11,701 nt of DNA from an uncultured bacterium. GTDB lineage: Bacteria; Zixibacteria; MSB-5A5; JAABVY01; JAHJOQ01. This document shows positions 1 to 11,701 of the stretch, piece after piece. How positions within the stretch are numbered: position 1 is the stretch's first letter; every line of letters begins with the position of its first letter. The notes under the pieces were generated by a model. That model searched no databases and had not been told where the DNA came from. It was given only the letters and a program-made list of their open reading frames with translations. The DNA lies in NCBI GenBank assembly GCA_965369655.1, contig CBDUQR010000064.1:1-11701 (forward strand). The letters are read 5' to 3'. Made by a program: the position numbers and the translations under genes.

Positions 1-325
1 CTTCAACGAGTTCCTTCGGAAGTTTGACCTGCTTGTCGTATTCGCGGCGGATCTCCCTGACATTCGCGGCGGCATCCGACTCGGCATCCTTGATCAGATC
101 GCTTTCCTCGACTGCTGAAAGCAATTCACCGACTTTCTTGTCCGTGAATTTTTCATGGACTAATCCCGACAGCAATGCAACCTGTCGCGAACGGCCCTCG
201 GCTCCGCCACGCGGCATATAGGTTCGTTCATCCCATCCGAGAAGCGACTCGCAGGAACCGAGTATCGCGATCTCGCGGTATGTTGTTATCAACTCGTTGT
301 AAGCCTGCTCGGCTGAAATAGTCAT
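1..325 (-). CDS. M32 family (Taq-type) metallocarboxypeptidase, N-terminal part; runs off the left edge
   Basis: Manual translation from ATG at 325 (AAGGAG upstream): MTISAEQAYNELITTYREIAILGSCESLLGWDERTYMPRGGAEGRSRQVALLSGLVHEKFTDKKVGELL...AANVREIRREYDKQVKLPKELVE, open to base 1. LLGWDxxTYMPxGG and REIRRxYD..KLPxELV are typical of the M32 N-terminus. Not in the ORF track because there is no stop inside the window. Confidence 0.9.
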   Translation of the reverse strand, partial: MTISAEQAYNELITTYREIAILGSCESLLGWDERTYMPRGGAEGRSRQVALLSGLVHEKFTDKKVGELLSAVEESDLIKDAESDAAANVREIRREYDKQVKLPKELVE

Positions 326-356
326 GTGCGGAATCTCCTTAGTTTTGTTTGCAGTA

Positions 357-385
357 GATATAATCTGCAATATGTCTAATGGCAA
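357..385 (-). promoter_or_regulatory. Possible sigma70 promoter for the carboxypeptidase gene
   Basis: Minus strand TTGCCA (385-380), 17-nt spacer, TATATC (362-357), about 30 nt upstream of the ATG. It overlaps a TTGCAG-N10-CTGCAA inverted repeat (349..370). The -10 match is imperfect. Confidence 0.3.
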
Positions 386-508
386 GCGCTTTCGGTTGAT
401 CGGTTTTTCTCCTGCCGTTGTACTCTCGACAGTTTGCGTTGATTGTTGCGTCACCGAGCGGGTTCAAATAACTTGACAAATGCCGATAATTACATTAATT
501 CCGCGATG

Positions 509-554: not shown

Positions 555-628
555 GGCGGTGTAGCTCAGCTGGTTAGAGCAGCGGAATCATAATCCGCGT
601 GTCCGGGGTTCAAGTCCCTGCACCGCTA
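555..628 (+). tRNA. tRNA-Met(CAT), elongator type; CCA not encoded
   Basis: Cloverleaf: acceptor GGCGGTG/CACCGCT, D stem GCTC/GAGC, anticodon stem GCGGA/TCCGC with loop ATCATAA (CAT at 589-591), T arm CGGGG-TTCAAGT-CCCTG, discriminator A628. G1 pairs with position 72 and there is no GGG/CCC anticodon stem, so it is not initiator. The sequence resembles elongator Met more than Ile2. Confidence 0.95.
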
Positions 629-631
629 TTT
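611..631 (+). repeat. att core, copy 1 (attL-like, tRNA 3' end)
   Basis: CAAGTCCCTGCACCGCTATTT, identical (21/21) to 7440..7460. Confidence 0.93.
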
Positions 632-939
632 GATGAATTTGCCTGTAATGAAACCACTTATAATATTGCTGTCGCTGTCCATGATGGGCTTGTGATAGAT
701 CTGTGTCCACACGAGATCCCTAGTAACAGACATTACTTCCCCTGACGAGCTGGACTGTCCCGGAAAGGAGAACCCTAAGTACGGAGCCCTTTTCGGGAAT
801 GCAGCAAAAGGATCGATATTATTATCAGTCCCTTGCAGCAATTATGCTGCTTACTATCATTCCAAATCTACTAAAACTCAGTTCAATTTCAAGCCCATTG
901 TGTCTGGATTAAGCTGAAGAAAAACAACAGGGTTTTGTA

Positions 940-967
940 TTGAAAAACGTGCGTAAGCGTGTATCTT
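940..967 (+). promoter_or_regulatory. Putative sigma70 promoter of the cargo operon
   Basis: TTGAAA (940-945), 16-nt spacer, TATCTT (962-967), preceded by A/T tracts. Confidence 0.4.
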
Positions 968-996
968 CCGTTTATTGGTTGGGGAGGATTACAACT

Positions 997-1071
997 ATGT
1001 TCTATTGGATTCCAGGTCCTGTTCCTGCTCATCTGCCGAGAAGGCGACTGAAGTATGTTGCAGACGGTTGA
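997..1071 (+). CDS. Putative 24-aa upstream ORF / leader peptide
   Basis: Strong SD GGGGAGGA (981-988) 8 nt before ATG 997. Encodes MFYWIPGPVPAHLPRRRLKYVADG* and sits between the putative promoter and the barrel gene. Confidence 0.35.
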   Translation: MFYWIPGPVPAHLPRRRLKYVADG

Positions 1072-1118
1072 TAAATACCAGATTTCCGGTAAGCACCGAT
1101 TGGAAGGATAGGAGCGTT

Positions 1119-3065
1119 ATGTTGAAGCGATTGATATTACTATCACTGTTGATGGCCATGTTGTTTCAAAGTTTTGCATCCGGCTCTAGTGTCAACATAT
1201 ACCAACAATTCGACAACCTCTCGCAACAGGTTAACCGATCGCGAGGATTAGCGCTCGCTGTCCTTAAACAGATCAAGCAGATTGACGCCGATTGTTTGAG
1301 TGACGGTGACATCCCTGTTCCGGGCAGGACCGGCGAAGCCAGGAGCCGTCTGGGTGGAGTTAGACTTCTGGTAAGATCTTTTGAAACGATCTCGGATGAT
1401 GCTGAAAAACTCTCGAAGCAACTCGAAAGAGATCTGATGTCGTCGGCATACAGGGCTACACTTGCTGCGGAGTTGACCCCGGGTATCAAAAAACTAAAGA
1501 TAGAAATTGCCAGGTTTCGACAATATGTAAATCAGCATTACAACCGAGCGATCAACAATTACGGTGAACCGATTATTGGAGCACCCCGAGCAGCAGGATT
1601 GGCGCCAGGAAAGAAGCTCTCCATAAGCGGTGAGGTTGCAACCGGTCTTGGTAGTTCCCAGTATAAACGTCCGCATGCCAATCCAGCATTCAAATCATCT
1701 TCGACCGACTTCCTGTTTGGAGTAAAGGGCTTGTTTATCCCTTCCAAAAACACAACGGTACTGATGAATCTGAATCACAAGAAGACTGTCCAGCGAAGAG
1801 AAATTGCGCTGACAAAGCTGGGAGCGTCTGTCGTTCAGAACTTCACTCCAAATTTCACCGGATCAGCAGGTCTCGATTATTCCAGGTATTCGGATAAGAC
1901 AATCGATATCGCCAGCTATGGCGATTTGGGAATGTTCGGACGGGTTGCGTTCCAGAAAAAGGGTATGCGTCTGGATGGCCAGGTTCGGCGCACTTCGCGT
2001 GGTTATTCCGATCTCGATAACGCAGATTACAGCACGACAACATTGTCCGGAGGAGCCACATTGCCCGTAGGATTGGGCAATGTCAAACTGAGAATGAATT
2101 ACCTGTCAAAATCAAATGATATTGATGCGTTGAATCATACTGAGTTCAGCCCAGGCGCGATCTGGCAATTTGTTCCGTGCGGGTCTGAGGTCGGCGTCAA
2201 GTATCAGCAATTCTCTCACCCTGAGGTTGACGACAGCCCTCTCGACAACAATCGAATCAAGGCGCATCTACATCTTGTCAAAAAATCTGGACCCGGTACA
2301 TCGCGATGGGGTCCTGAAGTGATGATCTACAAGTTCCCAAACGATGAAGCGCGAGACTATATCGATTTCAAGCTCTTTCTTCAGTCAAACAAACGAACGA
2401 CCAGCTTCAAGACTTTACGATTGGAAGCGGCGTATCGCATGTATTCTGATACGAGTCAGTATGATTTTGCACAGTTACAGTTTCGGAGCAACAGCCGCCC
2501 GATCGGCTCAGGGTATTACTCCAATCTGAATCTTGCAGCTCGATATTATACAGAATCTTCCAACGATGACGATGCTCTGCGTTTCTCCAACGTTCACCCT
2601 CCCCATACCGTAGATTGCTACTGGAATCTCGGATGGAACTGGATCGGAGGAAGTTGGTTCCAGGGCTTTTCGGCGGGGCCGATCTTTGGCACCAGGGTCT
2701 ATCTCGATACTGAACGATCCGATGCGTTCGACGAAGATCTTATTGATACTGACTTTCTTCTTAGAAACCCACAGAACACAGCTCGTGCTGGTCTGAAAGT
2801 CGGTATTTCCGGGACGAGTTCTCAGACCGTCACATGGAGAACCGATCTGAGTTACGTGTATTCGATTCTTTACAATGCAGACCCGATGCGCACAACTAAC
2901 ATTCTCGAATTGAGCACACGCCTGAATTATCCGATCGACGATAAATGGCTCGTGGAGGGGTATGCGAAAATACACCGAACCCGGGTAGAAATTGAATCCG
3001 TGGCAGACCTTAACAAATCGAATGTTGGAGTGCAAGTCAAGTATCTCTTTGGCACCGGACTGTAA
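1119..3065 (+). CDS. Predicted outer-membrane beta-barrel protein with signal peptide and N-terminal helical domain (648 aa)
   Basis: Start moved from 975 to ATG 1119 (AGGAG SD upstream). MLKRLILLSLLMAMLFQSFASG is a Sec signal peptide. About 140 aa of helical-looking sequence follow, then many amphipathic alternating strands (e.g. GSAGLDYSRY, TLRLEAAYRMY, WLVEGYAKIH). The last strand VGVQVKYLF resembles a beta-signal. Family not recognised. Confidence 0.75.
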   Translation: MLKRLILLSLLMAMLFQSFASGSSVNIYQQFDNLSQQVNRSRGLALAVLKQIKQIDADCLSDGDIPVPGRTGEARSRLGGVRLLVRSFETISDDAEKLSKQLERDLMSSAYRATLAAELTPGIKKLKIEIARFRQYVNQHYNRAINNYGEPIIGAPRAAGLAPGKKLSISGEVATGLGSSQYKRPHANPAFKSSSTDFLFGVKGLFIPSKNTTVLMNLNHKKTVQRREIALTKLGASVVQNFTPNFTGSAGLDYSRYSDKTIDIASYGDLGMFGRVAFQKKGMRLDGQVRRTSRGYSDLDNADYSTTTLSGGATLPVGLGNVKLRMNYLSKSNDIDALNHTEFSPGAIWQFVPCGSEVGVKYQQFSHPEVDDSPLDNNRIKAHLHLVKKSGPGTSRWGPEVMIYKFPNDEARDYIDFKLFLQSNKRTTSFKTLRLEAAYRMYSDTSQYDFAQLQFRSNSRPIGSGYYSNLNLAARYYTESSNDDDALRFSNVHPPHTVDCYWNLGWNWIGGSWFQGFSAGPIFGTRVYLDTERSDAFDEDLIDTDFLLRNPQNTARAGLKVGISGTSSQTVTWRTDLSYVYSILYNADPMRTTNILELSTRLNYPIDDKWLVEGYAKIHRTRVEIESVADLNKSNVGVQVKYLFGTGL

Positions 3066-3091
3066 TCGAAAAATCGGGAGAGGCAAATAAA

Positions 3092-6000
3092 ATGATACAG
3101 ACAAACTGGAATTCTATCACTGTCAGAAAACTGTTATCGGTGACCCTGCTTATTATAGCTCTGATGGCTCCGATGACAACGACATATGGCGACTCCGAGT
3201 ATGATGAGGCTTTGCAGCAAACTGAGGATCAGTGGAATGCTGTTCGCCAAACGATGCAGGAGAGCAAGACCAAGTTCGATACGTTCAAGGATAAGTATCA
3301 GGAATACGAAGATGCTGTGTTCAGCCAGGATGCAGAGCGAGGCATAGAACTGGCTCGCAAGCTGTTCAATCTTGACAAGAGCCAGACAGCAGAAGCGAAA
3401 AAGAAACTCGCATCCCTCCGCGAGATGTTCAATGAACTCGACAAGAGCGGTATCAAGACCAAATTGGAGAAGGCATCCAAGGGACTCGAATTCGCTGACA
3501 ATGTTGCAGGCGAAGTTACGAACGTATGGGAATTCTCCAAGAAGTTCGATCCTAAGCATGCCAAAGACAACCCGACATATGGGCTGAGATTGATCGGGGA
3601 TCTCCTCAAGGAAAGCGCCAGCAAAATGGAGAAAATCCCGCTGGTTGGACAGATACTCGGCAAATGGATCGGAGCTTATGGCGAAGTAGCGGGTGATTTT
3701 GCAAACGCTCTTGACCGACTCGGCAAGAAAATCGATGATTTCAGAGGCGGGTCGCTGTGCGGACAGCTCGGTTACAGAACTGACCAGCAGAGCGCCTTCA
3801 AGTCCGCCTCAGAAAAAGGTGAGAGCTGTCTGACCTATTTCGCAGTTGGCATTTTTCCGCGTATGCGAGGTGAAACCTATGAGGGCAATAACTCATATTT
3901 CCTTTATGATCCGAGCAGCAAGAGAGGATATTTTTCTCCGACCGGCACAACAGAGAAAGTTTATAACTGGCACGAGCGGTTGCTCGACAGAGTTGCTCTC
4001 GATCCTGACTGGCTGGCCAGCAGGTCCAACTCTCTCAAGGCGGAGACAGAGAGCAAAGCACGGGAATACTACGCAAGTTTCTCAGGATGGAAGGACAAGA
4101 CCGACCCAGGCTGGATCATCATAGAAAAATTGGGACTCTATCAGGACGCATATTTCTATGGTCGTCTCGACGAAGACACTTTTGTCGCCAACTATATTCT
4201 GGCCGAGAAACATCATAAGGCCATAGAAGCGATAATGAAGGAATATGAGAAACACGTTCTTATCGCTGGAACCGTGTATGAGACTGAAGAGGATGACAAG
4301 AAGCCATCAGCCGGAGCTCAAGTTGAGTTTACCATCTCCGGAAAAAACTACAAGATGGATACTGATCAGAACGGCCAATACGAGATATTGATGAAAGGCA
4401 AAGTCAACGACGCCATCCACGAAAAGGTTACAAAAGAGGGGTTTGAGCCGATCGAGCATGATGGACACATGATCGAGAGAGCAATTCAGGGGCAAGACTA
4501 CACTCTTCTCAAGAAGGCAATGACCGTTGTAATCAGCGGGACTGTTTACATCAAAGAGAAGAAAGATGAACCAGCGGTGACTGTCGATGGAGCAACCGTT
4601 GCGGCGACCGCGCAAAAGGCAGGGGAACTTGGAAGCGCTACCAGTGCTGGAGATGGTTCCTATCGCTTGACTGTGAAGACAATCGAGGGCGTTACAGTAA
4701 CATGCACCGCTACAAAGGATGCCGCATCCGGTGCCGCAACTGTAACCGTAACAGGCGAAGCTCATTCTGGCGTTGATATAACGCTTTCGAAAACTGGTGA
4801 GGATAAAGACGATGATGATGGACCTTCATGGATCATCAATGTCATAGTATTCGATGACGCAGGCCAGCCATTGCCCGGCGCCATAGTCACATGCACCCAC
4901 GATGTTTCAGCGGTCACGACAGGCGCTGATGGAGCAGCGACAATCGGGCCAATCGAGATACCTGACACATGGCCCGATGAGGCATTCACTGTAACCCTGA
5001 CTCCATCGATTGTTGCCGAGGGAGGCGTGAAAGTCGGCGGCAGTTCTAAAAGTGTATCCTACGAAGGCGAATCTCCGAGTGCGGCGACATTGACTATCCC
5101 CGTTCTGATTCCGCAGTCTGTGACGATCAGCGGGAAAGTTCTCGATGCAAACGGCGTCGGCCTTGGCGGCACAGTTGTAACAGGTGCCGGCCAATCAGCC
5201 ACAACTTCAGGTTCCGGGGCATTTTCAATCGGACCATTCATGATGGTTAAGGATTCTTCAATCGCCCTGATGGCTACACTGAAGGAGGGGTCGCATACAT
5301 TCTCTGGTGGGCCAGTCACAGCAACTTTTGACGGTGCGAACAAGAGCATTTCGGGAGTGGTGATCACTCTCGATATAGAGACAGTGACCGACGTGACAAT
5401 ATCCGGATTAGTGACGGACTTAGACGGCAAGCCAATCGAGGGTGCCGCTGTCACTGGTGGGGGAGGCGCATCCACTACTAATGGCGCCGGCAAGTATACT
5501 CTCCCCGCATTCGAACACAAACTCGGAACATCGGTATCCATCTCGGCTACGATTACGGACATGAACGGAGTCGCGGTAGGCGGGCAGGTCGATGTCAAGC
5601 CGATGAGCGATGCTGCCACAGCTCCGACGATTGTTCTCGATGTTACCCAGGAAGATGTCCATGATGTCACTATTTCCGGGACTGTGATCGACGAGAATGG
5701 CGCCGGTGTCTCTGGCGCGATAGTCACGGCTGGATCAGCATCTACCACGAGCGCAGCATCCGGAGAGTTCTCTCTGCCGCCGATCGAAATGGTCAAAGAC
5801 GAGGTTGTTGCGGTAAGTGCCGCGTATACCGATGGTCAGGACACCTATGCCGGTGGACCCGTCTCGGCGACATTTGATGGCACGAATACATCGATCGGAG
5901 GTATCACGCTTGTTGTGAAGAAAGACAAGACTGCTGCGGTGACTGTATCTGGAACAGTTATCGGTACTGATGGCAATGGGATCGGTGGAGCATCTGTATC

Positions 6001-7165
6001 CGGCGGCGGTCAAACCGCACTGACGGATGGCGCGGGTAGTTTTTCGCTCGGGCCTGTGCAGCATGAACTCGGCACGCCGCTCAGCATATCCGCATCGGTC
6101 ATGAAGGCCGACGGTAGTACTGCGGGCGGAACCGCAAGTGTCACGTCGACTAACGATGTTGCCAGTATTGCCATTGTAATAGACCTTGCTGCCGATGCAA
6201 CCGACGATCTCGATAGTCTCATCAATGACCTTAAAGACGATCTCGATAGCACCGGGATGGATTCCGACGCCATGCTGGCTGGATTCTACGCACTGATTTC
6301 GGATCTGGATGGAATCGCGGGAAAATTCTACTCACAGGCAGACTTCGCCGATCAGCGAATCCGTGAACTGGGACCGGAAGTTTGTATGAGCGGGGATGTA
6401 GCTTCTGCAATCACTGCCGCTGGAACCCAGACCGATATTTATGACTTCACTCTGAGCGCTGTGCCCGGCCTTTATGCTGAACTTATTGTACTACAAGCAA
6501 TCGATCCGACGATTGATCTCTCCACAGCCGATGCTGAATTTGCTCGAGTGGCGGGCCAGATGGAGACGCTCGATGTGAAGTATGCTCAAGTGATTGGAGC
6601 TTACAATTCGTACGAGTGTGATGAGGACGCCGCCGATATGAACTCAGGTGATAAAGCCGAGACTGACGCTGATCCGGATGATGTCGAGTCTGGAGCGGAC
6701 GCAGGAGGCGGAGTCGAGGTCTGTGGCGACGGTATTGACAACGACAAGGATGGTGAAATCGATGAGTGCGACGCCGGATGCTGTGATAAGAATGTACAGG
6801 TGACTGTGAGCGACTGCGGAACCGCAGCCGACGATATTTTCCTTGTGTCAGTCGATGGAGGAGATGTCGGAGTTACTCCCAAGGGAGCAGCCAATACGTT
6901 TAACATAGAGCTTTCTCCCGGCCTCCACACCGTCAGGGTCACATGTCTCGATGACGGTGGAGATCCGCTCGGATCAGACATCGGCACAGCGTGCGTATCG
7001 ATTATAGTCTACGGCACTGATGCGGGCATCGGCGGAGGAGAATTAAGCATTGCATACGGGGGGTCCGATACTGTGTCATTTACAGTTCCGGAGGGACCGG
7101 CAGAGACAACAGTCCAACAGATATTTGATGGCACAACTCTGCAGGGTCTCGAAGGAGGGAACTGA
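3092..7165 (+). CDS. Large secreted multidomain protein (1357 aa): signal peptide, helical N-domain, 7 carboxypeptidase-regulatory-like beta-sandwich repeats, helical linker, MopE-like CxDGxDNDxDGxxDE motif, PEGA-like C-terminal domain
   Basis: SD GGGAGAGG upstream and a hydrophobic N-terminus. Repeats start near 4256, 4526, 4829, 5120, 5393, 5666 and 5939 with consensus VTISGxVxDxxGxPxxGAxV...TxxxGxF/Y. EVCGDGIDNDKDGEIDEC lies near 6716. VSVDGGDVGVTP...IELSPGLHTVRV resembles PEGA. Confidence 0.85.
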   Translation: MIQTNWNSITVRKLLSVTLLIIALMAPMTTTYGDSEYDEALQQTEDQWNAVRQTMQESKTKFDTFKDKYQEYEDAVFSQDAERGIELARKLFNLDKSQTAEAKKKLASLREMFNELDKSGIKTKLEKASKGLEFADNVAGEVTNVWEFSKKFDPKHAKDNPTYGLRLIGDLLKESASKMEKIPLVGQILGKWIGAYGEVAGDFANALDRLGKKIDDFRGGSLCGQLGYRTDQQSAFKSASEKGESCLTYFAVGIFPRMRGETYEGNNSYFLYDPSSKRGYFSPTGTTEKVYNWHERLLDRVALDPDWLASRSNSLKAETESKAREYYASFSGWKDKTDPGWIIIEKLGLYQDAYFYGRLDEDTFVANYILAEKHHKAIEAIMKEYEKHVLIAGTVYETEEDDKKPSAGAQVEFTISGKNYKMDTDQNGQYEILMKGKVNDAIHEKVTKEGFEPIEHDGHMIERAIQGQDYTLLKKAMTVVISGTVYIKEKKDEPAVTVDGATVAATAQKAGELGSATSAGDGSYRLTVKTIEGVTVTCTATKDAASGAATVTVTGEAHSGVDITLSKTGEDKDDDDGPSWIINVIVFDDAGQPLPGAIVTCTHDVSAVTTGADGAATIGPIEIPDTWPDEAFTVTLTPSIVAEGGVKVGGSSKSVSYEGESPSAATLTIPVLIPQSVTISGKVLDANGVGLGGTVVTGAGQSATTSGSGAFSIGPFMMVKDSSIALMATLKEGSHTFSGGPVTATFDGANKSISGVVITLDIETVTDVTISGLVTDLDGKPIEGAAVTGGGGASTTNGAGKYTLPAFEHKLGTSVSISATITDMNGVAVGGQVDVKPMSDAATAPTIVLDVTQEDVHDVTISGTVIDENGAGVSGAIVTAGSASTTSAASGEFSLPPIEMVKDEVVAVSAAYTDGQDTYAGGPVSATFDGTNTSIGGITLVVKKDKTAAVTVSGTVIGTDGNGIGGASVSGGGQTALTDGAGSFSLGPVQHELGTPLSISASVMKADGSTAGGTASVTSTNDVASIAIVIDLAADATDDLDSLINDLKDDLDSTGMDSDAMLAGFYALISDLDGIAGKFYSQADFADQRIRELGPEVCMSGDVASAITAAGTQTDIYDFTLSAVPGLYAELIVLQAIDPTIDLSTADAEFARVAGQMETLDVKYAQVIGAYNSYECDEDAADMNSGDKAETDADPDDVESGADAGGGVEVCGDGIDNDKDGEIDECDAGCCDKNVQVTVSDCGTAADDIFLVSVDGGDVGVTPKGAANTFNIELSPGLHTVRVTCLDDGGDPLGSDIGTACVSIIVYGTDAGIGGGELSIAYGGSDTVSFTVPEGPAETTVQQIFDGTTLQGLEGGN
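5120..6190 (+). repeat. Four intragenic beta-sandwich repeats with an exact 273-nt (91-aa) period, A-B-A-B arrangement
   Basis: VTISGKVLD (5120), VTISGLVTD (5393), VTISGTVID (5666), VTVSGTVIG (5939). Units 1 and 3 share MVKD...GGPVxATFDGxNxSI. Units 2 and 4 share HxLGTxxSISA...GG. Confidence 0.85.
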
Positions 7166-7237
7166 GACAGGCAAAGCGTCAGGTTCTAAGTCTGTAAGGT
7201 TGCGTTACAGTCAATGCTGCTGTAGATCGGTAGAGAT

Positions 7238-7311
7238 CGCGGGGTGGAGTAGTCCGGCAACTCGTTGGGCTAATAACCCGAAGGTCGGTGGTCAATATCC
7301 ATCCGGTGCTC
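7238..7311 (+). pseudogene. Degenerate initiator tRNA-fMet-like sequence with anticodon AAT
   Basis: CGCGGGG TG GAGT AGTCCGGCA ACTC G TTGGG CTAATAA CCCGA AGGTC GGTGG TCAATAT CCATC CGGTGCT C aligns arm by arm with bacterial tRNA-fMet (5' CGCGGGGTGGAG, GGG/CCC anticodon stem, CCCGAAGGTC). The anticodon reads AAT instead of CAT, the T-loop lacks TTC, and the acceptor stem has two G-G mismatches. Confidence 0.85.
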
Positions 7312-7375
7312 TATACCACCAGGTGCCAGTTGTGCTGGAAGAAATTTGACGGTGTTCGCGCGTGTATAGTTGTCA

Positions 7376-9082
7376 TCAAGCTGCTCTTCTTTTTGAAACT
7401 ACGATCACTTCAAACGGGATGGAGACTCCAATAGCGTTGCAAGTCCCTGCACCGCTATTTATAGCTATTGGAAGTCCACTTTCACCAAGCGCATTCAACG
7501 GCATCGCATTGCCGCTTATTCTGAAGACTGTACGGCCATCCTTCTCTTCTGTCTTTACTGTGAGCTTATCCGGAAAGATATTCCTCAAAGTAGCGCGAAA
7601 CACGCTCATCGACTCGGTGTGCCTCTGCAATAGATCGCCCAGACTGGAGAGTTTTTTCTTCACCCATTCGGCGTCGACATTGGTCGGAATCGATTTCCTG
7701 TTGGAAAGACTCGCCAGTTCACGCTTCACAGACTGGAGTCGAGACTCCTTGGCCAGAAGCCTCTCTTTGAGTGATTCTGTGAGATTTCCCTTCTCGGCGA
7801 GATCAAGCAGGTTCTGTACTACAGCGGTCAGGGATTCTTTCTCTTTCTTCAGTTTCGCTTTCATGTTTCGAGGCGTTTGAGCCGTTGCCTTCAGCATCGA
7901 GTTGACATTCTTGGCAAGCAGCTGACACGTCTCCTCGGACAGCAGCAATTCAGACAGCTTTCCGAACACGGCATCCTCGACCGACTTCCTGTTGATGCGA
8001 TGATTACATACGCAGACTGTAGTACCTCTGCTCCAGTATCCATTACAGATGAAGGCCGAGTAGCTCTTCGATGATGTGACAATGTAAGACGATCCACATT
8101 CGGCGCAGACAAGTAAGCCCGATAGCGGGTACTTGCCGTTTGCCGGACGTGAGCGGGATCGTTTGGGCGCATTCTGTGGATTCGACTCGCCGTGAACTGC
8201 ATCCCACAATCGCTGTGGTACAATCCTCAGCGATTTGTCCTTGTGAACGATCCATTTATCCGGCGAGTTATCAATCTTAAGTCTCTTGCCGGTGATATTC
8301 TTCTTGAACCACTTCGTCTTGTTCCATGTCCAGTCGCCGATATACTTCTCTCGATTCAGCATCGATTTAATTGTGCCCGAACACCAATGCCCGCTCCTGC
8401 TGCCGTTGCCGGCGTGAGGTGAAGGGATTCCCTTTGCATTCAATTCATGGGCTATCGCTCTGTAACCCATGCCCAGTTTGCGCATCTCGAACATCTTTCG
8501 AACGACCTCAGCTTCCCTGTCGTTGATCTTTATGTGCACACCATGTCGCCTCGGCCTACCGAACTTGTCTTGTTCTCCACTCTCGAACAAATCAGGAACA
8601 GCGTCATAACCATACACCCGGCCGCCTGCGGAGTAACCACGAGAGACCTGTCCCTTCATTCCACGAACTATCTTAGCCTTGAGATCATCGAGGAAGAGTT
8701 CGTTTGCGATACTCTTGAAGTAGTAAGGAATCTTGGCAGACTGAGACAGCGTTTCGATCCCATCAGATACGGAAGCGATGCCGATCCCGAACATCGTGAG
8801 TTCCTGGAATATATGGATGGATTCTCCGGCATCTCTACCAAGCCGAGATAGATCATCTACGACGACGCAATCAAACAGCCTGTCAAACGCATACTTCTTG
8901 AGATTCACATATCCCGGTCGGTTGACTTCGGCTCCGCTGACTGCCTTATCGGAGTGGATATGATCCTCACATACCTGCCAGCCTTTGTGAGAAATGAACT
9001 GCCTGCATTCCCGAATCTGATCGTCGATAGAGGTCTGCTTCTGCATATCGCTGGAGTACCTGGCGTAGATGGCGCATCTCAT
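7376..9082 (-). CDS. Large serine recombinase / serine integrase (568 aa from ATG 9082)
   Basis: Catalytic YARYSS and DDLSRLGR motifs, a recombinase domain (YGY...EAEVVRKMFE...IAHELN...W...YIG), a zinc ribbon (LSGLLVCAECG...FIC...C) and a coiled coil. ATG 9082 has AAGGTGG upstream and is preferred over GTG 9097. Ends with tandem TGA TGA (7378-7373). Confidence 0.95.
   Translation of the reverse strand: MRCAIYARYSSDMQKQTSIDDQIRECRQFISHKGWQVCEDHIHSDKAVSGAEVNRPGYVNLKKYAFDRLFDCVVVDDLSRLGRDAGESIHIFQELTMFGIGIASVSDGIETLSQSAKIPYYFKSIANELFLDDLKAKIVRGMKGQVSRGYSAGGRVYGYDAVPDLFESGEQDKFGRPRRHGVHIKINDREAEVVRKMFEMRKLGMGYRAIAHELNAKGIPSPHAGNGSRSGHWCSGTIKSMLNREKYIGDWTWNKTKWFKKNITGKRLKIDNSPDKWIVHKDKSLRIVPQRLWDAVHGESNPQNAPKRSRSRPANGKYPLSGLLVCAECGSSYIVTSSKSYSAFICNGYWSRGTTVCVCNHRINRKSVEDAVFGKLSELLLSEETCQLLAKNVNSMLKATAQTPRNMKAKLKKEKESLTAVVQNLLDLAEKGNLTESLKERLLAKESRLQSVKRELASLSNRKSIPTNVDAEWVKKKLSSLGDLLQRHTESMSVFRATLRNIFPDKLTVKTEEKDGRTVFRISGNAMPLNALGESGLPIAINSGAGTCNAIGVSIPFEVIVVSKRRAA
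7430..7460. repeat. attP-like site inside the LSR coding sequence (att core copy 2 plus inverted repeat)
   Basis: AATAGCGTTGCA-AGTCCC-TGCACCGCTATT has 12-bp arms matching 11/12, centred on TC 7444-7445. The equivalent left arm in the tRNA matches only 6/12. An outer inverted repeat TCCAATAGC (7427-7435) / GCTATTGGA (7464-7472) is also present. Confidence 0.85.
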
Positions 9083-9220
9083 ACTACTCGTCACCACCTT
9101 CGATCATGCTCCTGATCTTCTCGGCTTCATCTGTCATGTGAATCCTACAGCTGTTCATAGAATGCCTGCGAGCCTTAATCCTGCCGAGCTTCTGTGACCG
9201 TCCTATGTCTATGCATTCCT

Positions 9221-9358
9221 TTATCTTACGTCTCCTTCAGCTAACACAATGCTCCACATCGCGGCACCTATCAAGAGAATTCCTGCGAAGACCTTGTTTT
9301 TCTTGGGCTGATACACAAACCAATAGCACCATATGTAAAGGCCAGTCAGGAGAGTCAT
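9221..9358 (-). CDS. Possible 45-aa membrane peptide or remnant of a membrane-protein gene
   Basis: MTLLTGLYIWCYWFVYQPKKNKVFAGILLIGAAMWSIVLAEGDVR* has two hydrophobic segments separated by KKNK. There is no clear SD, and an in-frame TAG lies two codons upstream. Confidence 0.3.
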   Translation of the reverse strand: MTLLTGLYIWCYWFVYQPKKNKVFAGILLIGAAMWSIVLAEGDVR

Positions 9359-9451
9359 TGGCTATTGGGCGAGTTTCGAAACGCTGCCGATGAATCGCAG
9401 TATTCATGTTACATCCTCGCCGTCCTGACAGACCCACGACCCGATGAATCT

Positions 9452-9728
9452 GTGAATTTTCACGCCCCAATGTGAAACCTGATCTCCTTGCAGTTCATAG
9501 CGTTACACCTATAATTCACGTTTCACACTTCACACTTACCCTATCCCTAGAATCGGAAATCCAATCGCGGTGCGTAGAGACAAGTTGAAATGGTGAATTT
9601 GTAGTATATATTATATGTATTTATATATACCATAGATTTACTCCCTCCTTGACGTTTCACACCACCCTGTGAAATCTCGTGAAGTTCCGTCATAATCCTA
9701 TGTCCCATAATCTGTTGTAACCCGTGAA
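9452..9728. other. Putative replication origin (iterons flanking an AT-rich palindromic tract)
   Basis: 11 copies of GTGAA/TTCAC (9452, 9459, 9472, 9515, 9522, 9529, 9593, 9656, 9669, 9679, 9724), a direct repeat ACGTTTCACAC (9518, 9652), and the AT tract GTATATATTATATGTATTTATATATAC (9604-9630). It lies immediately downstream of, and slightly overlaps, the DUF3987 gene. Confidence 0.65.
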
Positions 9729-10924
9729 TTTTGTGGATGGAAGTGAGTAGCTTTCTTCTTGCTGTCCACTCGAATATCTTCCCGATCAACAAGGGTTGCC
9801 ACAGCATCATCGAGTCTCATCTTGCCGTGTCTGAATTTCCGCAGAAGCGAAGAACGATCAATGCCAGGTTCCTGTTTAATGATCTTCAGAGCTTTCTGCA
9901 CATCCCGTTCTTCTTGGCTGAAGACAAGCCCCGTATCCAGCAGACAACGAATGTTCACGCGCAGCATTTCCACTAAGTCACGAGCCATTTTCATGTTGTG
10001 TACTTGAATTTCGCAGGAGTGATCTTCAGAAATCTGATACAACATTGCGAATTTCAATAGATACGTTTCGAGTCGCGACAAGAACGGTGCTATACGTTCG
10101 AAATCCTGTTCCTTCTCGGTTGCTGTCTTGTGCTGCGTGTACCAATCCTCGTACATTTCCTTTGCTTCTTGCGAGAGTGTTACTTCGCCTTCAACACGAG
10201 AAATCTGCTCTAACTGCGAGACAAGTTCAGATTGGACAGCTGGATCAGGGACAGGCGGAATCGGCAATAACTTTGACGGCTCTGTTCCGCTGACATAGAC
10301 GAACCGTGCCAGAAAGCCCGACATGATGTCGTCTTCACGCAGCTTCGAATTGAGCCATGCGACTGTAGAGGCAGAGAGGATAGAGATACAGGGATTCTCT
10401 ATGGTGATGATGTCCTTCTTCAGATGACGTGTATGTCGTTGCGGACAGTCATACAGATCAGTCAACATCTCCTTGGTCCCGATCATATAGCTACGGTTGA
10501 ATTGTTCAAGCACACCGCCAAATTCAGACCAACAAAACAATCCTTGAGGACGCTCTTGCAGCAGTTCGAGCAGAGCTTCACTGGAGAATTCGTTTGGATA
10601 GACGTAGTCGTTCTCAAGCTTCCACAGCAGCGACCTGCCCATGTTGACCGCTGTTGTCTTGCGGCAGCGTGACGAGGGCGCAACGAGTAGAATCCAAATA
10701 TTCGGATAGATCACCTGAGGACCAAGTCTGAAGAAGACATTCCTGCTGCACACTGCAGCCGCCAGAGCGAATGCAACAAACAGATGAAACGATTCAGGTG
10801 CCTCAGTAAGAGGACAGGCATAGCTGTAGTAGTCCTTGATGAATCCCTTTTCCGGGATCACCAGATCGGTTCGTGCACACGTCTCCCTTGCATAGATATC
10901 ACTGATCGCTGCGTTGTTAGACAT
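9698..10924 (-). CDS. DUF3987/YfjI-like P-loop helicase-like replication protein with a likely C-terminal winged helix (408 aa)
   Basis: Motifs EAPESF, YPNIWILLVAPSSRCRKTT (P-loop-like), SSEALLELL, SEFGGVL, LTDLYD, IENPCISILSAST and GFLARF. ATG 10924 is preferred over 10933 because it has an AGGGGA SD and overlaps the upstream gene's TAA (ATGTCTAA). Confidence 0.85.
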   Translation of the reverse strand: MSNNAAISDIYARETCARTDLVIPEKGFIKDYYSYACPLTEAPESFHLFVAFALAAAVCSRNVFFRLGPQVIYPNIWILLVAPSSRCRKTTAVNMGRSLLWKLENDYVYPNEFSSEALLELLQERPQGLFCWSEFGGVLEQFNRSYMIGTKEMLTDLYDCPQRHTRHLKKDIITIENPCISILSASTVAWLNSKLREDDIMSGFLARFVYVSGTEPSKLLPIPPVPDPAVQSELVSQLEQISRVEGEVTLSQEAKEMYEDWYTQHKTATEKEQDFERIAPFLSRLETYLLKFAMLYQISEDHSCEIQVHNMKMARDLVEMLRVNIRCLLDTGLVFSQEERDVQKALKIIKQEPGIDRSSLLRKFRHGKMRLDDAVATLVDREDIRVDSKKKATHFHPQNSRVTTDYGT

Positions 10925-11483
10925 TGCGATCATCCCCTGCTGCGAAACTGAGGTGCTTAATCTTATAATTCAGCAGTACCAATTCGAAGTCTGTTTCGTA
11001 CAGCCACCATTCCAGTTTCTGCTCCCAGGCGTAATAGCAGCTCAAGCCAATCACTCCTTTCTCCAGCCGATTGGTCAAACGAATCAACTGCTCAGTGAGT
11101 AGCTCTGATAACTGCTACACTTCACGGAATCTGCTCTTCAGACAGGATAATTCAATGGGTTCCCATTTCGGAGTTCTGCCGATTCTGGGCGGCTGGCGTA
11201 CGGACGTTGAACGAGGTACAGACCTCGTTGATTGGAAGTTACTTCCAAGATACCCCAGGACCCCCCTGAAATCCGTGTTCAGCAAATGTTTGAGCAGAGT
11301 GATCGTGTTGCCACTGCAACCACGCGTATGGCAGTAGAAAACCTGATCCGTAAACGAGAATGCTGTAGGGTTATCACCCCCGTGAATTGGACAAGCACAA
11401 CGATTTCGTCTGTGCGGTATGCCGAATCTATCCAGAATATCAGCGATCGAGAGTTGATTAGTCAGTCCGATCTGGTTCAGCAT
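10917..11483 (-). pseudogene. CHC2 zinc-finger (primase Zn-binding domain) protein interrupted by one in-frame TAG at 11117-11115
   Basis: CPIHGGDNPTAFSF...FYCHTRGCSGNTITLL is a zf-CHC2 motif. After the TAG the frame stays open for 65 codons (QLSELLTEQLIRLTNRLEKG...KHLSFAAGDDRNV) to TAA 10919-10917, which overlaps the DUF3987 start. The full length would be 188 aa. Confidence 0.75.
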
Positions 11484-11646: not shown

Positions 11647-11701
11647 AGCTAGTGGTGTGATGCATAATTAACGGGCATTATCTTGCTTTCATTAGTCCTC
11701 C

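Follow-up and report, generated by a model that had tools for sequence, protein, structure and literature searches.

The window, that is, the whole stretch of 11,701 nt that was analyzed, is an entire contig (C64) of a draft genome of 100 contigs, and it holds a tandem stack at a tRNA-Met gene. As had been proposed from the sequence alone, copies of an attachment core lie at 611 and 7440, the cargo between them is recombinase-free, and the gene of a large serine recombinase (LSR) runs across the second core. The features are summarized in Table 1. The 6.8 kb between the cores (unit A) carry two genes for putative surface proteins, and unit B, which begins with the LSR body, runs beyond the window. 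The M32 carboxypeptidase flank adjoins the tRNA in G001, too, a genome of the same genus. At the other end, the Zn_ribbon_DnaG match of the CHC2 protein scored 24.0 bits, just below the family cut-off of 24.9, and the terminal repeat also has a 95% match inside another contig (C68).

Table 1. Features identified in the window (coordinates in nt; strand "." where a feature has no orientation).
Feature	Position	Strand	Evidence or remark
M32 carboxypeptidase gene, 5' part; chromosomal left flank	2..454	-	Pfam Peptidase_M32, E 9e-17
tRNA-Met(CAT), intact; B-type arm of the attachment site	555..628	+	Rfam tRNA 64.2 bits, full model; ARAGORN gives 554-629
Core copy S1, 21 bp	611..631	+	tRNA 3' end + TTT; left boundary of unit A
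Unit A left end	632..974	.	No LSR remnant (tblastn), no P'-type half-site (PWM -15.0)
Cargo ORF1, 696 aa as listed	975..3065	+	No Pfam family
Cargo ORF2, 1357 aa	3092..7165	+	Pfam PF13620, E 5e-28, 3 stretches
Degenerate initiator-type tRNA-Met fragment	7238..7304	+	Rfam tRNA 29.4 bits, model positions 7-64
Unit A P arm	7376..7439	-	LSR stop codon + codons for residues 553-573
LSR, 573 aa, intact	7376..9097	-	Pfam Resolvase, Recombinase, Zn_ribbon_recom
attP-type site S2	7427..7472	.	Perfect 9-nt inverted repeat around core copy 7440-7460
DUF3987 primase/helicase-like protein, unit B	9698..10933	-	Pfam DUF3987 E 2e-20; PHROG DNA primase E 3e-37
CHC2 zinc-finger (primase-type) protein, unit B	11115..11483	-	Pfam Zn_ribbon_DnaG E 3e-5; PHROG DNA primase E 5e-9
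Multi-copy repeat ending the contig	11649..11701	.	53 nt identical at ends of C5, C12, C33, C67

The 18-mer CAAGTCCCTGCACCGCTA had exact matches at 611-628 and 7440-7457 when the whole window was searched; 0.01 matches were expected by chance, and at least two matches occurred in 0 of 200 shuffles. Read from the sequence, the identity extends to 21 bp (611-631 = 7440-7460), and the core spacing is therefore 6829 bp. At S2 the repeat arms are TCCAATAGC (7427-7435) and GCTATTGGA (7464-7472), with the dyad centre at 7449/7450, and no comparable inverted repeat surrounds S1. With a P arm, the core and a P' arm in this order, the second junction is an attP-type site, in agreement with the earlier proposal. 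A half-site PWM was built from 12 real half-sites, which share a register at +/-15..23 in the underlying alignment, and 20-mers served as background. In the relative G003, a half core breaks after core position 11, beside the dyad centre. The tRNA side of the site is well kept: in the 41 genomes searched, 21 tRNA copies were found, all ending in CCGCTA, and the 18-nt core was exact in 16 of them, the other five having one mismatch further upstream. The arms downstream of the tRNA were not conserved among relatives, so the LSR may need little more than the tRNA half and the core.

The resolvase catalytic domain of the LSR (PF00239, E 2.6e-21) spans residues 9-154, and R13 and S15 fall at alignment positions with at least 90% conservation among 66 homologs. 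The protein also has PF07508 and PF13408, with invariant cysteines at C331, C334, C351 and C362, and a long coiled coil is predicted at residues 388-465 in an AlphaFold2 model with a mean pLDDT of 82.2. Both the catalytic domain and the combination of Recombinase domain, zinc ribbon and coiled coil that characterize large serine recombinases are thus present, and the LSR may be active. Residues 553-573 and two stop codons are encoded to the left of the second core; the codon for residue 553, the first in the unit A P arm, straddles the core boundary, and the double stop (minus-strand TGATGA) occupies 7373-7378 of the plus strand, the stop of the ORF itself being 7376-7378. The end of the left unit therefore supplies the last 21 codons, as had been claimed, and the protein has 573 aa here versus 552 aa if the gene abutted the tRNA, where a TGA read off the tRNA would end it at about residue 552. 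This short isoform, which had likewise been predicted, was found in relatives. In G003 (contig C115) and G005 (contig C97), tRNA, core and LSR follow one another directly, with the TGA at residue ~552, and three database proteins (P0004-P0006), 85-92% identical to the LSR, end in ..SGAGT. Conversely, the protein P0003 from an independent database contig is 98% identical to the LSR, has 573 aa with the tail of unit A, and ends in ..VVSKRRAA.

The 21-residue tail is evidently conserved as protein, judging from its codons. The reading frame is open to the same stop in six of the seven close P arms, which share the motif C[NS][AT]IG..IPFEV.V..KR.AA. Between units A and B, tail codons 7-21 gave a pS of 0.59 and a pN of 0.09, and pS exceeded pN in 15 of the 15 pairs compared. 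The AlphaFold2 model places a strand at residues 560-567 (mean pLDDT 82 for residues 561-570), and the tail is thus predicted to form a beta-strand. Furthermore, 51 of 120 LSR homologs end in peptides that resemble translated tRNA antisense by a motif of our own. At four of the seven more distant loci examined, the 3' end of the LSR gene adjoins a tRNA gene encoded on the other strand (Met twice, Glu and Asn). The close homologs are labelled Zixiibacteriota by their sources.

In unit A, no recombinase was found by Pfam in 600-7378 (two large and two small ORFs), and tblastn with the LSR returned tail residues 547-573 only, all other matches having E values of about 1 or more. The sequence-only reading had named integrase remnants in 632-940 as the mark of simple decay of an autonomous element, and tblastn with the LSR found none there. 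ORF1 probably starts at a Met at ~1119, which is followed by a signal-peptide-like stretch; from composition alone, our guess is that it encodes an outer-membrane or secreted protein. Judged by its domains, ORF2 encodes a large secreted or surface protein; CarboxypepD_reg (Ig-like) repeats occur three times in it, and its C-terminal region is rich in Cys and Asp. No homologs were detected in 40 relatives for ORF1 (E ≤ 1e-5) or for ORF2 (same-genus genome included), and by this gene content unit A is accessory DNA. The tRNA-Met fragment corresponds to the 5' three quarters of a tRNA with a mutated anticodon loop and no acceptor 3' strand; it is 83% identical over 72 nt (blastn) to a tRNA of the same genome on contig C46, and ARAGORN called no tRNA there.

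The two ends of unit A differ. On the right is a full attP-type site, and on the left are the tRNA half and core only. The left arm scored -15.0, a value reached by 25% of background 20-mers, against 19.3-24.4 for real half-sites. A circle of 6829 bp would thus have no more than half an attP, and, judging by its ends, unit A is not a self-contained attP cassette. The P arm at its right end has a homolog in the P arm on contig C16 of the same genome, and five further homologous P arms come from G003 and metagenome loci.

A third core lies on C16 at 5450. Its left arm is identical to the unit A P arm at 38 of 39 nt, and its right arm encodes LSR residues 533-552, a 20-codon remnant. To the right of this site are LysE and Aldedh genes, which are kept in five of five family genomes, while C16:1-5449 is not conserved among them. 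The C16 site may close the same array, although C64 and C16 are separate contigs without a physical join in the assembly, which counts against a single stack. In the comparison of the unit A and unit B P arms, 38 of the 39 core-adjacent nucleotides are identical, whereas the next 24 nt contain about 10 differences; under tandem accretion, this pattern calls for gene conversion, or for selection on the arm to fit the resident LSR, and so counts against that reading.

Stacks were also found in relatives, and the occupancy between the tRNA and the orthologous LSR differs among G001, G003, G005 and database homologs, as had been anticipated. The GTDB family of the source genome comprises 6 genomes only. 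Three cores occur in the source genome and five in G003, where one contig (C52) contains, in order, a P arm with a half core followed by a 2.4-kb unit; a P arm and core followed by an 8.5-kb integrase-less unit with a sigma-54 activator, a radical SAM protein, a CAAX protease and an ABC transporter; and a P arm and core followed by an LSR remnant (residues 405-573) and the chromosome. Only a 37-codon LSR remnant stands at the tRNA of G001, followed by an unrelated Big_9 surface-protein gene; LysE in this genome follows an apparent tRNA-Leu gene (judged by eye). No clean empty site was found, G001, the sole same-genus genome, being occupied. Decayed units other than A keep LSR remnants of 20 (C16), 37 (G001), 164 (G005) and 169 codons (G003), and in both the source genome and G003 remnant decay is greatest farthest from the tRNA. 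Wider searches gave no relatives in a viral contig collection, by LSR protein or by P-arm pattern, one locus at 44% identity in a genome contig collection searched with the LSR, and seven loci with the P-arm and core pattern in metagenome contigs, five of them from one metagenome matching G003.

We consider it rather probable that the locus arose by tandem accretion at an elongator-type tRNA-Met and that unit A is an integrase-less, CIME-like derivative. The elements would belong to an LSR clade in which the 3' end of the recombinase gene itself contains the attachment site, each element having the LSR body at its tRNA-proximal end and the last 21 LSR codons, in the P arm, at its far end. Since the LSR gene is split over the two ends of the element, the 573-aa form can exist only on the circle or behind another P arm. 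The array would read tRNA-core, unit A, core and unit B (LSR and primase module), and would continue on C16 with a core, the 20-codon LSR remnant and the chromosome (LysE). Unit A, which keeps a P arm and lacks a P' half-site, would by position donate the tail to the LSR of unit B. Most likely, unit A is the remainder of a sister element whose integration and replication module has been lost; it could still move, either as a composite with B or by recombination between its flanking sites.

Two observations on the left ends of integrase-less units fit tandem accretion less well. First, nothing of an LSR is left at this end in unit A, unlike in the other decayed units. Second, in unit A and in the integrase-less unit U2 of G003, divergence begins directly after CGCTATTT, and a shared divergence point is somewhat odd for random deletions. 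The left-arm half-site of U2 scored -20.8 in register and -7.3 after a 2-nt shift; the latter value is reached by 5% of background, and the shifted half-site is suggestive only.

In the sequence-only reading, unit A was a cassette with its own attP, a 6.8-kb integrase-less circle inserted in trans by the resident LSR at the regenerated tRNA site, which would then act as a reusable docking platform. We consider this unlikely, and the alternative given in the same reading, that A is an older relative whose integrase was deleted, has at least the same likelihood. The left arm at background level speaks against an attP of its own, and the missing inverted repeat at S1 points the same way. Known serine integrases, moreover, act on attP x attB and not on hybrid sites unless a directionality factor is present. 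Insertion in trans would nevertheless account for several features. Unit A adjoins the tRNA and the oldest-looking remnants are the farthest off; if new units enter at the tRNA, unit A is the newest, which fits trans insertion better than old decay. The missing LSR remnant is also in its favor, as is the P half-site that matches that of B at 38 of 39 nt while the remaining tail has diverged. In addition, if the LSR needs little beyond the tRNA half and core, the regenerated site would be reusable. Published analogues exist in ACME, which is mobilised by the ccrAB of SCCmec (PMC7029739), and in 15 ssrA islands without an integration module (PMC3146451).

Excision was sought in the assembled contigs of four public runs (X1-X4), aligned to the whole window. 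No credible circle, excision or empty-site junction was seen, so the predicted excision product did not materialize in these contigs; assembly into contigs drops rare forms, and the lack of such junctions is therefore not evidence against circles and weighs little against insertion in trans. A joint 617->7291 was rejected as an excision product because it is a repeat artefact, its short side of 21 letters falling where the T arm resembles the pseudo-tRNA at 7238..7304. The depth of unit A in run X1 (9.9) equals that of its flanks (10.5 and 9.25), which supports the junction as real and also speaks against a trans-inserted circle. Over the LSR, depth in this run is doubled by a second LSR variant.

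The same contigs bear on a second alternative, in which A and B form one composite, with A as cargo moving via the outermost sites (S1 and the C16 site) and the inner attP-type site as a fossil joint. The A-B junction occurs in assemblies of three runs, all of one study, and, with the tail variant of A, in the independent contig that encodes P0003, and joint excision is documented for SCCmec and ACME (PMC7029739). In run X4, from another study, the unit A genes occur at ~95% identity while the LSR body is almost uncovered, which hints that A and B are separable, with the caution that this cover is patchy and that a gap in contigs is no proof; the circle junction of a composite would likewise have no P' half-site. 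We regard the composite as improbable.

An assembly chimera at the A-B joint, or an origin of A as native DNA downstream of the tRNA, is far more remote. The genome is a 100-contig draft and the contig ends in a repeat, which leaves room for misassembly. However, no exact stretch shared between sites exceeds 34 nt, which falls short of the 55 nt by which contigs overlap, an independent contig of run X3 bridges S2 (6999-8699), and an independent protein record has the same joint. Native DNA is contradicted by the absence of the A genes from 40 relatives, including the same-genus genome, and by the right end of A, an LSR-tail homolog that evolved as coding sequence.

The closest architecture known to us is that of the ssrA islands of Dehalococcoides, tandem islands with the serine recombinase DsiB (McMurdie et al., 2011, PMC3146451). 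As in the locus, these islands form a tandem array behind a single-copy small-RNA gene, the 3' end of which recurs as a repeat of ~20 bp at the boundary of each island, a conserved motif precedes each repeat, and a ~540-aa reverse-strand recombinase beside attL always overlaps attL with its 3' end (PMC3146451). The locus has the tandem repeats and the LSR position of these islands, and the likeness is one of architecture. The target is ssrA rather than tRNA-Met, the host lineage differs, and the island module includes the second, small serine recombinase DsiA and RecF-like, ParB and Mom proteins (PMC3146451), whereas the part of unit B within the window has primase/helicase families only and no DsiA, ParB or Mom homolog. 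The C-terminal overlap is described as divergent in length and sequence in the islands (PMC3146451), while the tail is conserved as protein here. The same paper proposes that the 15 islands without an integration module are cis-mobilisable elements, and that full function of the integrase is perhaps confined to the circle and to positions behind a neighbour island that carries the 3' fragment (PMC3146451). Such an island stack, together with the idea that a neighbour completes the integrase, is thus already published, and of the docking platform proposed for the present locus, the completion of the integrase by the neighbour stands by anatomy and the novelty does not.

Staphylococcal SCC composites (SCCmec with ACME, COMER or pseudo-SCC) likewise stack by serine recombinases (CcrAB or CcrC) at the 3' end of one essential gene, as units flanked by short direct repeats, and there a neighbour's recombinase mobilises recombinase-less units and a composite can excise as a whole (PMC7029739). 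SCC elements insert at rlmH/orfX, and mostly a CcrA/CcrB pair acts, in contrast to the one LSR gene at a tRNA here; the likeness is of arrangement, and sequence kinship is evident only at the level of the LSR superfamily. To our knowledge, the ccr genes lie inside the SCC element and do not span its attachment site. The classic examples of CIMEs and of ICE/IME accretion involve tyrosine integrases. A CIME resembles unit A in that it has no integrase, is flanked by att repeats and shares its insertion site with an adjacent element that does have one (PMC3146451), and unit A, too, is free of recombination and transfer genes. By definition, a CIME has functional att sites on both sides, whereas the left site of unit A lacks an element-type half-site.

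Integrases that extend across attP are described for the myxophage Mx8 and the fusellovirus SSV (PMC4383910), and the same Islander paper cites Tojo et al. (1996) for an altered C-terminal region of IntP. In Mx8 (IntP/IntX) and SSV1, the coding sequence of the integrase is itself altered or split upon integration (PMC4383910), as it is here; these are tyrosine recombinases, an unrelated family with another mechanism, and the part of that paper used here describes no tail restoration by a stacked neighbour for Mx8 or SSV. The LSR shares the Resolvase-Recombinase-zinc ribbon order and the coiled-coil insertion with the integrases of A118/LI, TP901-1, SPbeta (SprA), Bxb1 and phiC31, has weak sequence matches to the structures of the TP901-1 catalytic domain and SPbeta SprA (YokA), and its attP-type site has inverted half-sites, as in the attP of about 50 bp with a 2-bp crossover that such enzymes use. 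Phage-type large serine integrases mostly use protein-coding or intergenic targets, and we know of none whose gene spans attP. The description of the locus as integron-like holds only as an analogy: unlike an integron with the tyrosine recombinase IntI, attI and cassettes ending in folded attC, it has a serine-family recombinase, and its repeated site is the 3' end of a tRNA gene, with an attP-type inverted repeat in double-stranded form. None of the papers listed in our literature searches concerned a serine integrase at tRNA-Met whose gene spans attP.

tRNA genes are classic targets of tyrosine integrases. In 2015, a database paper stated that serine integrases were not known to use tRNA genes (PMC4383910). 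This locus and its homologs show a clade of serine integrases that targets them. Because the LSR gene spans its own attachment site, the protein differs among the free, the solitary integrated and the stacked element, and the conserved tail gives a firmer footing to an idea that was only speculative in Dehalococcoides. Stacks of this kind account for blocks of genes that vary between strains next to tRNA genes in metagenome-assembled genomes. Database sequences of such integrases often have a false C-terminus, which matters for the mining of genome-engineering tools. A bolder reading, which we consider doubtful, is that the 21-residue tail is a state sensor and unit A a tail donor. The C-terminal strand of the 573-aa LSR would complete a small beta-sheet, and LSR activity or directionality would depend on the occupancy of the upstream site; unit A would be kept, or inserted in trans, keeping the LSR whole and the tRNA site open. 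If this were true, the locus would represent a serine-recombinase gene-collecting platform widespread in uncultivated bacteria.

The window is the whole of contig C64 (11,701 bp), one of the 100 contigs of the draft genome G000, and its features are listed below. The 18-mer noticed in the sequence-only reading occurs at two positions, against a chance expectation of 0.01, and exact identity between the two copies extends to 21 bp (the core, a copy of the 3' end of tRNA-Met), with a spacing of 6829 bp. A perfect 9-nt inverted repeat, TCCAATAGC / GCTATTGGA, brackets the second core, and none was found around the first. The reading frame of the large serine recombinase (LSR) crosses the second core, and the codons for residues 553–573, followed by two stops in succession, lie to its left, in what we call the P arm. 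Within the 6.8 kb between the cores (unit A), Pfam detected no recombinase, and tblastn with the LSR matched the tail only. The 18-mer positions, Pfam, tblastn and the inverted repeat thus bore out in every particular what had been described from the sequence, namely repeated cores, cargo lacking an integrase and an LSR that ends left of the core; the feature is real and was correctly observed. Among the 41 genomes searched, 21 copies of the tRNA were found; the 18-nt core was exact in 16, and five had one difference further upstream. Because all 21 copies end in CCGCTA, the tRNA of the window is correctly regenerated.

Features of the tRNA-Met locus on contig C64
Feature	Position	Strand	Source
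M32 carboxypeptidase gene, start only	left end of window	minus	Pfam
tRNA-Met(CAT), intact	555-628		ARAGORN, Rfam
First core	611		
Unit A cargo, two large ORFs	within 6.8 kb	plus	
Second core	7440		
LSR, 573 aa	7376-9097	minus	
DUF3987 primase/helicase-like gene and CHC2 zinc-finger gene	right of LSR		Pfam, PHROG

A degenerate initiator-type tRNA-Met fragment (7238–7304) lies towards the right end of unit A; over 72 nt it has 83% identity to the gene on contig C46 of the same genome, including 6 nt upstream of that gene. Its anticodon loop is mutated, its 3' acceptor strand is absent and ARAGORN made no call; it may be a relic of former residence at a different tRNA gene.

A third core of G000 is located at position 5450 of contig C16. 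Its left arm shares 38 of 39 nt with the arm that lies left of the second core and diverges further out. The arm directly to its right still encodes LSR residues 533–552, and in it the TATTGGAA motif stands in the register seen in the LSR-side arm of the window. The genes beyond this arm are LysE, aldehyde dehydrogenase and MTTB. The first two are conserved in all five remaining genomes of the family, in which the 5.4 kb to the left of the core shows no conservation. We infer that C64 and C16 are linked, and the order of the array would then be tRNA-core, unit A, core, unit B (the island containing the LSR and the primase module), core, a short residual piece of an older LSR gene and the chromosome. 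Unit B is interrupted by the contig break at a multi-copy repeat. The last 53 nt of the contig (11649–11701) also end contigs C5, C12, C33 and C67, with a 95% match inside C68, and probably represent one end of an insertion sequence interrupting unit B.

C16 also carries a repeat of 125–230 bp (6645–6880, locus L004), located between LysE and the aldehyde dehydrogenase gene. Dozens of copies, at 70–92% identity, are present in G001, a genome of the same genus, and the repeat resembles a miniature mobile element. In G001 (contig C208; L074, about 1240–1330), LysE is preceded by what appears by eye to be a tRNA-Leu-like gene, not tRNA-Met, and the tRNA calls for G000 include no tRNA-Leu(TAA). 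Either the region downstream of the array has been rearranged between the two species, or it is incompletely assembled.

How unit A came to lack an integrase was considered next to the proposal that it is a 6829-bp circle with its own attP, inserted in trans. Unit A is accessory DNA, neither gene of which has a homolog in 40 relatives; it lies closest to the tRNA, with the most decayed remnants farthest away; it holds no integrase remnant; and its P half-site almost equals that of unit B, all of which would suit such a cassette. Against this, the left arm of unit A scores −15.0 on a matrix built from 12 half-sites, a value reached by 25% of background 20-mers, compared with 19.3–24.4 for the real half-sites (self-included). 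The left arm therefore has no half-site, and the circle would carry only half an attP. In the contigs of four public runs, which cannot reveal rare forms, the depth of unit A equals that of its flanks, and no credible excision, circle or empty-site junction was found. Insertion in trans is considered unlikely, and we judge it likelier, with some confidence, that unit A is a sister element minus its integrase module, resembling a cis-mobilisable element. That units A and B instead form one composite element seems more doubtful still.

Public run X1 may be from the source sample. Its contig depth was 19–26 across the LSR (7430–9384), about twice the 9.9 of unit A, and variant letters (7461 A>T, 7462 T>G, 8315, 8645, 8669, 9003 and 9023) occurred at about half the depth. 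An additional LSR copy or strain, closely related and missing from the assembly, is therefore present.

We also compared the LSR forms predicted by joining the parts in silico. The LSR has 573 aa both in the window (C-terminus ..IPFEVIVVSKRRAA) and on the predicted unit B circle (..IPFEVIVTLKRRAA). With unit B placed directly against the tRNA it has 552 aa, as the T arm of the tRNA, read in antisense, supplies TGA. The tRNA-core-LSR arrangement with TGA at that place was found in G003 (C115) and G005 (C97), and database homologs of 85–92% identity end in ..SGAGT; the short form is thus the one found in nature where no unit precedes the LSR. A database protein of 98% identity from an independent contig is the long form and carries the tail variant of unit A.

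The frame is open to the same stop, with a common motif, in six of seven close P arms. Dropping the arm with a premature stop, we compared the remaining six over tail codons 7–21, outside a plausible DNA half-site: pS exceeded pN in all 15 pairs (0.59 and 0.09 for unit A versus unit B). AlphaFold2 (66 aligned homologs) predicted a strand at residues 560–567, preceded by a disordered linker and beside the hairpin 512–531, with a mean pLDDT of 82 for residues 561–570; as the true tail is present in only 3 of the 66 sequences, this strand is a hint. Judging from sequence comparison and modelling, the tail is not junk.

The GTDB family comprises six genomes, four of which (G000, G001, G003 and G005) have an LSR or its remnant at tRNA-Met. 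The G002 contig stops 6 nt beyond the core, and these 6 nt equal the LSR-side arm of G005; no LSR trace was found at tRNA-Met in G004. G003 has five cores. In tRNA orientation, the stack on its contig C52 begins with a P arm and half core followed by a 2.4-kb unit that contains a HEAT-repeat gene, and continues with a P arm-core and an 8.5-kb integrase-less unit (sigma-54 activator, radical SAM enzyme, CAAX protease, ABC transporter and Yip1). It ends with a P arm-core, an LSR remnant (residues 405–573) and chromosomal molybdopterin oxidoreductase and NrfD genes. Only the first 11 core nt remain in the half core (L025, about 17200–17300, minus strand) before unrelated DNA begins; the break follows CAAGTCCCTGC and adjoins the dyad centre of the inverted repeat, consistent with a crossover near core positions 10–11. 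The half core looks like a product of recombination with a non-cognate site. For LSR homologs at 29–42% identity, the 3' end lies against a tRNA in four of seven loci examined (tRNA-Met twice, tRNA-Glu and tRNA-Asn). In genomes of another family within the order (G010, G009 and G008; L034, L037 and L039), tRNA-Met is accompanied by a second copy of a longer 3' fragment, starting at TCCGGGGTT, with a different left arm; another element type uses the same tRNA-Met there, probably with a different integrase.

The tRNA-Met locus works like the ssrA islands of Dehalococcoides. As described in sections of McMurdie et al. (2011; PMC3146451), these tandem islands are bounded by a 20-bp repeat, have a serine recombinase on the reverse strand adjoining attL, and include 15 islands without an integration module that are possible cis-mobilisable elements. 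The 3' end of dsiB always overlaps attL, and the authors suggest that full function of dsiB may be confined to the circle, or to a position downstream of a neighbouring island that supplies the 3' fragment needed. In contrast, the target here is tRNA-Met, the lineage is different, their accessory module is absent from the part of unit B seen, and the integrase tail is conserved. The other serine-recombinase stacks are the SCCmec/ACME composites (PMC7029739). Mx8 and SSV encode integrases that span attP, tyrosine recombinases in each case, and serine integrases were stated not to be known to target tRNA genes (PMC4383910). Our literature search, supplements aside, found no paper on such a design at tRNA-Met.

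Many database LSR homologs (P0008–P0064; loci L008, L009, L010 and L023) end in peptides such as GLEPRT, GIRTPV, GNRTPV or GTRTPD, which we read as the translated antisense of tRNA T arms; a motif for such ends, our own heuristic, matched the C-terminus of 51 of 120 homologs. If this reading is true, the annotated C-termini of this LSR clade would often be artefacts of the integrated state.
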